Shown piece by piece: positions 57,353-57,532 of a stretch of 64,000 bases of DNA. The notes beneath the pieces are model-generated. The model had not been told where the DNA came from. It made no database searches and saw only the letters and a list, made by a program, of their open reading frames with translations. Source of the DNA: Escherichia coli. Lineage in GTDB: Bacteria > Pseudomonadota > Gammaproteobacteria > Enterobacterales > Enterobacteriaceae. The stretch lies in assembly GCF_048403405.1 (NCBI RefSeq), contig NZ_CP183129.1; one strand, given 5' to 3'. Each line of letters starts with the position of its first letter. Position 1 is the first letter of the stretch. The translations under genes and the position numbers were made by a program.

Positions 57353-57532
57353 GTGATCAATAAATTACTGTTAGCTTACCTGATAGGTCTGGTTGTGACA
57401 TCGACCTTAATATTTATCTTCTCGGAAGAAAAAGTAACATATCGGTTGTTTGCTGCAGTAATTACAGGGTTGACCTGGCCGCTTAGTCTCATTCCTTCCA
57501 TTATAAGTCTCATGATTCGTAAATCCGACTAA
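57353..57532 (+). CDS. Hypothetical small membrane protein (about 59 aa, two predicted TM helices)
   Basis: GTG start 7 nt after a strong GGGAGG SD; VINKLLLAYLIGLVVTSTLIFIF...LFAAVITGLTWPLSLIPSIISLMI. No family recognised. Confidence 0.35.
   Translation: MINKLLLAYLIGLVVTSTLIFIFSEEKVTYRLFAAVITGLTWPLSLIPSIISLMIRKSD

Follow-up and report, generated by a model that had tools for sequence, protein, structure and literature searches.

A putative orphan GhoT/OrtT-family gene beside pkgA at the glyU-proximal edge of the Escherichia coli ETT2 island

The locus, the reading frame and its product

The window analysed here is a 64-kb stretch (64,000 nt) of Escherichia coli DNA (contig NZ_CP183129.1) that includes one edge of the ETT2 island. 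The features of interest lie on the plus strand between a GH15-like gene and eivF, in a small ORF and the spacer that precedes it:

55677..57287, plus strand: GH15-like gene (pkgA / ygeQ-like, 536 aa, with an N-terminal signal-like sequence; PF00723 at 25.5 bits, PGAP)
57297..57327, plus strand: hairpin between the GH15 stop codon and the Shine-Dalgarno sequence (fold computation)
57342..57347, plus strand: Shine-Dalgarno sequence GGGAGG, 5 nt 5' of the GTG (direct reading of the sequence)
57353..57532, plus strand: CDS of the small ORF, encoding a predicted 59-aa inner-membrane protein of the GhoT/OrtT family, with GTG start and TAA stop (PF10753, PGAP)
57878..58627, plus strand: eivF, AraC-type ETT2 regulator, given as context and outside the small-ORF unit (Pfam HTH_18/HTH_AraC, PGAP)

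The small ORF runs from the GTG at 57353-57355 to the TAA at 57530-57532, that is 59 codons plus the stop in 180 nt. It begins 65 nt behind the GH15-like gene on the same strand, and is located at the glyU-proximal edge of ETT2, directly 3' of pkgA. The original prediction had described a GGGAGG motif and a GTG opening a 59-codon frame between a GH15-like gene and eivF; all of these elements are present and so arranged, except that the spacer between motif and start codon is TAAAA, 5 nt and not the 7 nt first given. The Shine-Dalgarno sequence is retained in all nine E. coli loci compared, where it occurs in two forms (TAAGGGAGG / AAAGGGGAGG), and the GTG start and the reading frame are intact in the nine loci read. 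In E. albertii, the orthologue starts at the corresponding codon with ATG, preceded by AAGGA.

A longer version of 78 aa, starting from the ATG at 57296, was considered and rejected. It is not preceded by a Shine-Dalgarno sequence, the codons for its additional residues come from the hairpin, and the family members begin where the GTG lies, which is also the start chosen by PGAP. This extension is ruled out because it is not conserved in E. albertii, where the upstream frame contains stop codons.

The product of the small ORF (MINKLLLAYLIGLVVTSTLIFIFSEEKVTYRLFAAVITGLTWPLSLIPSIISLMIRKSD) has a GRAVY of 1.12, and its hydropathy profile displays two hydrophobic stretches, at about residues 4-23 and 32-53, with SEEKVTYR between them. 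An AlphaFold2 model computed on a 24-member family alignment (mean pLDDT 90) places helices at residues 2-23, 28-40 and 46-58, and confidently predicts a helical hairpin whose second arm is broken at a TWP motif.

In RefSeq, PGAP annotates a CDS at exactly these coordinates and with the same GTG as "GhoT/OrtT family toxin" (WP_001305821.1). A megablast search of 5426 complete E. coli genomes identified a 100% identical region in strain TUM14771. In O157:H7 Sakai this gene is ECs3735, a CDS of identical length (180 nt) flanked by pkgA (ECs3736) and eivF (ECs3734). The O157 protein (WP_001301699.1) is one residue apart (V36I), a negligible difference, and V36 is the allele of the window, of TUM14771 and of others. 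A review of ETT2 lists ECs3735 as a ydcX homologue of 180 bp, an "inner membrane protein", adjoining ECs3736/pkgA, itself given as "phosphorylase kinase and glucoamylase" (PMC3977695), and ydcX has since been renamed ortT, an orphan toxin (PMC4344625). The small ORF is already annotated in RefSeq and tabulated for ETT2, and its family is already known; in the searched literature, ECs3735 / Z4199 appears in gene tables, with no experiment and nothing beyond these. The original view of an unannotatable ORF with two transmembrane segments is consequently kept for its two hydrophobic helices and abandoned for its first half, given WP_001305821.1, ECs3735 and the Pfam match described below.

Family membership, selection and distribution

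The protein matches the Pfam profile PF10753 (Toxin_GhoT_OrtT) at 45 bits (E 1.3e-11; gathering cutoff 22.1), with residues 4-46 aligned to profile positions 3-46 of 55. By BLASTP it shares 39% identity over 46 residues with K-12 GhoT (E 2e-12) and 25% identity with K-12 OrtT (E 2e-6). No NCBIfam model matched it at its cutoff, the PHROGs matches were weak only (E at least 0.019) and to families of unknown function, PADLOC matched neither this protein nor the GH15 protein, and a PDB profile search with the small ORF protein returned no match.

In the 24-sequence family alignment, T41, W42 and P43 are invariant, and conservation reaches 90% or more at Y9, S24, R31, G39, L44, S45 and L46; the small ORF protein harbors all of these residues. 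The equivalent of GhoT Phe38 is Val36 (Ile36 in O157), which is still hydrophobic. Phe is not found here throughout the family, because Yersinia, Serratia and other members also have V, I, L or S in this column. The protein ends in a charged IRKSD tail, where the family usually has FSLF.

When 1.84 billion representative proteins were searched exhaustively by HMMER, a 59-aa relative (P0096) of about 60% identity was identified; the source of a near-identical protein (P0101) names it as E. albertii. The contig encoding P0096 (L013) carries, in this order, genes for GH15, the small ORF, an eivF-like protein, a secretin, an InvE-like and an InvA-like protein. Identities between the window and this E. 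albertii locus are 76-77% for GH15, 88% for EivF, 88% for EivG and 59% for the small ORF. The comparison of the small ORF with its E. albertii orthologue gives pN 0.235 and pS 0.714, that is an omega of about 0.12 (NG86), a rough value, as synonymous sites are close to saturation; omega is 0.19 between two Yersinia copies (NG86). Moreover, 9 of the 12 variable sites among ten E. coli sequences fall at third codon positions. The conservation and substitution analysis that had been proposed for this ORF therefore points to a conserved frame under purifying selection, and the related islands compared, for example that of E. albertii, hold it without frameshift or loss. Frameshifted alleles do exist elsewhere, in E. 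albertii (P0115) and in E. coli (P0081).

The length of the small ORF alone is within chance, and its status as a gene rests on homology, selection and synteny. Indeed, when the 34%-GC stretch 57288-57877 (590 nt) was shuffled, an ORF of 59 codons or longer arose in 522 of 2000 shuffles (26%), the one point in favor of a chance ORF in AT-rich DNA. This reading is refuted by the PF10753 match above the gathering score, by the synteny with E. albertii, where 59 aa are conserved at the same position, and by the omega of 0.12; the conservation of the Shine-Dalgarno sequence and start codon, and the confident AlphaFold2 model obtained from the family alignment, also speak against it, and we give it a negligible probability. 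Between the two possibilities initially left side by side, a small membrane protein and a chance ORF, the former has thus been retained and the latter discarded. The small ORF is almost certainly a real gene of the GhoT/OrtT family, and represents a third, apparently orphan paralogue in E. coli, in addition to ghoT and ortT.

The gene is present in 1325 of the 5426 complete E. coli genomes (24%) and absent from about 76%; in a sample of 60 evenly spaced genomes, it is annotated in all 60. Since ghoST (5318 of the 5426 genomes, 98%) and ortT (5415 of 5426) are near-universal, strains that carry the small ORF have three family members. The matches obtained in a plasmid collection are all in chromosome-sized records filed as plasmids, and the gene is therefore not plasmid-borne. 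A scan of contigs with a protein alignment produced 11 pattern matches and one confirmed locus (L016, JAIJJM010000090.1). This is a 7.8-kb contig in a metagenome-assembled genome labelled Collinsella sp., with the small ORF at 98% identity, and it probably represents E. coli contamination of the Collinsella bin. A further 59-aa E. coli protein of the GhoT/OrtT family (P0131, MNIIRILIYIYITGFAVS…LFALIK) is 42% identical to the small ORF protein.

The edge of ETT2 on which the gene lies is frequently deleted. Of the 3256 E. coli genomes that match, some 1950 have only the left flank, and their match stops at 57300. The junction lies at 57300/57301 (…CATAATGAG / TTACAGC…, the slash marking the break), with the left end of the deletion at the first base of the hairpin core stem and the right end in eivJ, beyond the window end. 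With this large ETT2 deletion the small ORF is lost, along with at least eivF and the remaining genes of the type III secretion system (T3SS) up to the window end; in many of the deletion genomes the GH15 gene is still annotated as a normal, intact CDS.

Other variants were observed in this region. In a rare one (L028, positions 1809-2099, replacing 55445-57353 of the window; also L029), about 290 nt take the place of the GH15 gene, the hairpin and the Shine-Dalgarno sequence. By our reading, this insert would encode an integrase-like N-terminal fragment, fused in frame to the small ORF into a 111-aa protein (P0095) directly after tRNA-Gly. Variation within E. coli is highest in the spacer 57533-57877 (10% variable sites), which separates the small ORF from eivF and cannot be aligned with its E. 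albertii equivalent (L013 2299-2638) except for the last 100 nt or so before eivF, which are nearly identical and probably correspond to the eivF promoter and leader. Finally, in the strain that is 100% identical to the window over the 651 nt around the small ORF, eivE (gatekeeper) and eivA (export apparatus) are annotated as frameshifted pseudogenes (window positions from about 60332 to 64000; L001 7083-8651). The T3SS of that strain is probably non-functional; the small ORF is intact there.

The intergenic hairpin and the pairing with a GH15-like gene

The hairpin that separates the small ORF from the GH15-like gene has a core stem at 57301-57308 / 57317-57324 (GCGGTCCT / AGGACCGC) closed by the loop GGATTAAA, and a minimum free energy of -19.7 kcal/mol, a value that none of 200 shuffles reached. 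It is nearly invariant within E. coli, and it is not followed by a U-tract, which makes it a poor intrinsic terminator. E. albertii and Y. enterocolitica have hairpins of unrelated sequence in the corresponding position, and the fold z-scores are -3.5 in the E. coli window, -6.0 in E. albertii (L013), -3.8 in one Y. enterocolitica locus (L015) and a weaker -1.1 in another (L014). The Yersinia hairpins resemble intrinsic terminators, with a T-rich tail. We infer that the structure serves as a terminator, an attenuator or an mRNA stabiliser.

The hairpin ends 14 nt before the Shine-Dalgarno sequence, which leaves no room for a promoter between the two; any mRNA spanning the small ORF would therefore include the hairpin and begin within the 3' end of pkgA or further upstream. 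A promoter scan gave 3 sites against 4.0 expected from shuffles, a total not above chance, and on the minus strand the only promoter-like site is at 57821-57792, some 260 nt beyond the small ORF. No terminator-like site was found on the minus strand in the scan, and tRNA-Gly was the only Rfam match on 55200-58000; an antisense RNA gene of the type I toxin-antitoxin kind would be expected to have a promoter and a terminator of its own. The small ORF is likely to be co-transcribed with pkgA, and whether it is expressed by read-through across the hairpin appears evenly balanced. Under this scheme, the pkgA transcript would read through the hairpin, which would either damp or stabilise it, and translation would start at the GTG behind the strong Shine-Dalgarno sequence.

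Some of these features would also fit a decaying gene, that is a neutral leftover of a degenerate island, rarely or never expressed, behind a hairpin that merely terminates pkgA. ETT2 has undergone widespread mutational attrition (PMC3977695, PMC8565820), and the frameshifts in eivE and eivA, in a strain identical to the window, the loss of the small ORF from most E. coli, the existence of frameshifted alleles, and the terminator-like Yersinia hairpins with their T-rich tail are all in line with such a history. However, the omega values of about 0.12-0.19 and the third-position bias indicate purifying selection over the period sampled, the Shine-Dalgarno sequence, start codon and frame are intact in the nine E. 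coli loci, the gene is annotated throughout the 60 sampled genomes, and the E. coli hairpin, devoid of a U-tract, would terminate pkgA poorly. We therefore hold decay to be unlikely.

E. coli, E. albertii and three Y. enterocolitica variants share the order GH15, hairpin, small ORF. The Y. enterocolitica proteins (P0097, P0098 and P0102) are 43-47% identical to the small ORF protein and are its nearest relatives outside Escherichia. Like the small ORF, their genes lie directly downstream of a GH15 gene, here of about 540 aa and 59% identical to that of the window, with a hairpin between; they encode proteins of 57 aa with the family-typical C-terminus FSIL/FSML, whereas the small ORF protein has 59 aa and ends in IRKSD. 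The Yersinia pair lies among IS66, IS110 and other transposase genes, with no eivF or T3SS genes alongside. Moreover, the identities of GH15 and small ORF fall in step (76%/59%, 59%/40-42% and 73.5%/60%). This pairing across Escherichia and Yersinia seems to be unreported in the searched literature.

The association is less strict when examined from either side. Three GH15 homologues, of 65%, 54% and 52% identity (L023, L024 and L025), have no GhoT-like ORF nearby; a fourth, of 49% identity (L026), stands outside this count, as its contig ends 24 nt after the gene. The family members of Serratia and Enterobacter stand alone in other contexts and are not linked to GH15. Two of these homologues adjoin SPI-1-type T3SS genes, each in an arrangement of its own. 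The 65% homologue (L023 3001-4647) is oriented divergently to prgH, needle and prgK genes, and parA/sopB-like and SopD/pentapeptide genes come after it, and the 49% homologue (L026 2309-3958) directly follows prgK and orgA-like genes. The GH15-like family may be a recurrent accessory gene associated with T3SS.

The pairing may be taken to mean that PkgA and the small membrane protein work together, the latter as a membrane tether, a regulator or a holin-like release factor instead of a toxin acting on its own, and the two genes forming one mobile cassette. In addition to the order kept in the three species, with no T3SS gene beside the Yersinia pair, and to the parallel divergence of the two genes, such a partnership would agree with the fact that the GH15-linked copies are the closest relatives of the small ORF protein in the exhaustive search of 1.84 billion representatives. 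It is contradicted by the roughly 1950 E. coli genomes without the small ORF, many of which have GH15 annotated as intact, by the GH15 homologues L023, L024 and L025 lacking a GhoT-like neighbor, by the rare variant that retains the small ORF without GH15, and by GhoT, OrtT and the Serratia and Enterobacter relatives, none of which is linked to GH15. Furthermore, the GH15 protein has its own signal-like N-terminus, so that a holin should be unnecessary. A partnership with PkgA is in our opinion improbable. The broader proposal of a mobile GH15-hairpin-GhoT-like cassette, in which the small protein would have left a toxin-antitoxin role to become either a partner of the periplasmic GH15-like enzyme or an antitoxin-less toxin dosed by hairpin read-through, is doubtful to the same degree; if true, this would be a form of regulation without a described counterpart in GhoT or OrtT.

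Proposed function and comparison with GhoT and OrtT

The reading that we favor, as a whole and with some reserve, is that of an orphan toxin gene of the GhoT/OrtT family, expressed by read-through and acting through membrane damage. GhoT and OrtT are both toxic via membrane damage, ATP loss and growth arrest, and OrtT works without an antitoxin and is not neutralised by GhoS (PMC4344625). By analogy with these two, the peptide would enter the inner membrane and form a helical hairpin there, with its kink at the invariant TWP; once accumulated, it would damage the membrane and lower ATP and the proton-motive force, and this damage would lead to slowed growth or lysis. Such a toxic mechanism has for the small ORF protein about as much in its favor as against it. 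The identity to the tested toxins is 25-39%, Phe38 is replaced by Val/Ile, and the tail is the charged IRKSD, all points against a toxin role; the F38R substitution abolishes the toxicity of GhoT and reduces that of OrtT (PMC4344625). The gene is moreover dispensable, being missing from about 76% of complete E. coli genomes.

GhoT (K-12 b4559, 57 aa) shares with the small ORF protein the family, the size and the two-helix layout, and both have the S-x-E/D-K...R loop and the G-x-TWP-x-SL motif. They differ in several respects: ghoT has ghoS upstream, no GCU site, a Phe at position 38 and an FSLF terminus, whereas the small ORF has GH15 upstream, three GCU sites, Val/Ile, IRKSD and a GTG start. 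Moreover, ghoST is found in 98% of E. coli genomes, and the small ORF is an accessory gene found in 24%. When K-12 GhoS was used as tblastn query, neither the 64-kb window (best E 2.5) nor the related loci gave a significant match. A weak GhoS match recurring inside homologous GH15 genes (E 0.37 to 8.7) was taken as chance. With a GH15 gene upstream and no GhoS-like gene in the window or the related loci, the small ORF is therefore not part of a GhoT/GhoS-type pair.

The counts of GCU sites are 0 in K-12 ghoT, 3 in ghoS and 3 in the small ORF. Wang et al. reportedly traced, in 2013, the MqsR-dependent enrichment of ghoT mRNA to the lack of GCU, the MqsR site, in ghoT, which lets the mRNAs decay at different rates. 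With its three GCU sites, an MqsR-linked control of the small ORF as for ghoT is therefore unlikely. These data also bear on the idea of a type V toxin controlled in trans by GhoS, or through the MqsR cascade, the gene being in this case a satellite of ghoST. GhoS would nearly always be available, as ghoST is present in 5318 of the 5426 genomes, and GhoT is the nearest characterised relative (39%). Nevertheless, GhoS fails to neutralise OrtT, which is reported to be 63% identical to GhoT (PMC4344625), and the small ORF is more divergent; the three GCU sites, against none in ghoT, and the lack of a ghoS-like gene in cis also oppose this idea, which we regard as very improbable.

The best functional analogy for the small ORF is OrtT (YdcX, K-12 b1445, 57 aa), a member of the same family with, like the small ORF, no adjacent GhoS-type antitoxin gene. 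OrtT is induced by the stringent response. The analogy has its limits, as the identity of OrtT to the small ORF protein is only 25%, and OrtT is found in 5415 of the 5426 genomes. Moreover, OrtT is described as not belonging to a two-gene operon (PMC4344625), whereas the small ORF follows a GH15 gene on the same strand, a hairpin separating the two.

The value of these results as a discovery is small, the gene being already named in RefSeq and present in ETT2 gene tables. They nevertheless indicate that, where this edge of ETT2 has escaped deletion, E. coli strains possess a third member of the GhoT/OrtT family, with no GhoS-type antitoxin gene beside it, overlooked by toxin-antitoxin surveys such as that of adherent-invasive E. 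coli, which counts GhoT and OrtT only (PMC7232551). In addition, the pairing with GH15 across a structured spacer provides a lead on how an orphan membrane toxin might stay at a safe level.
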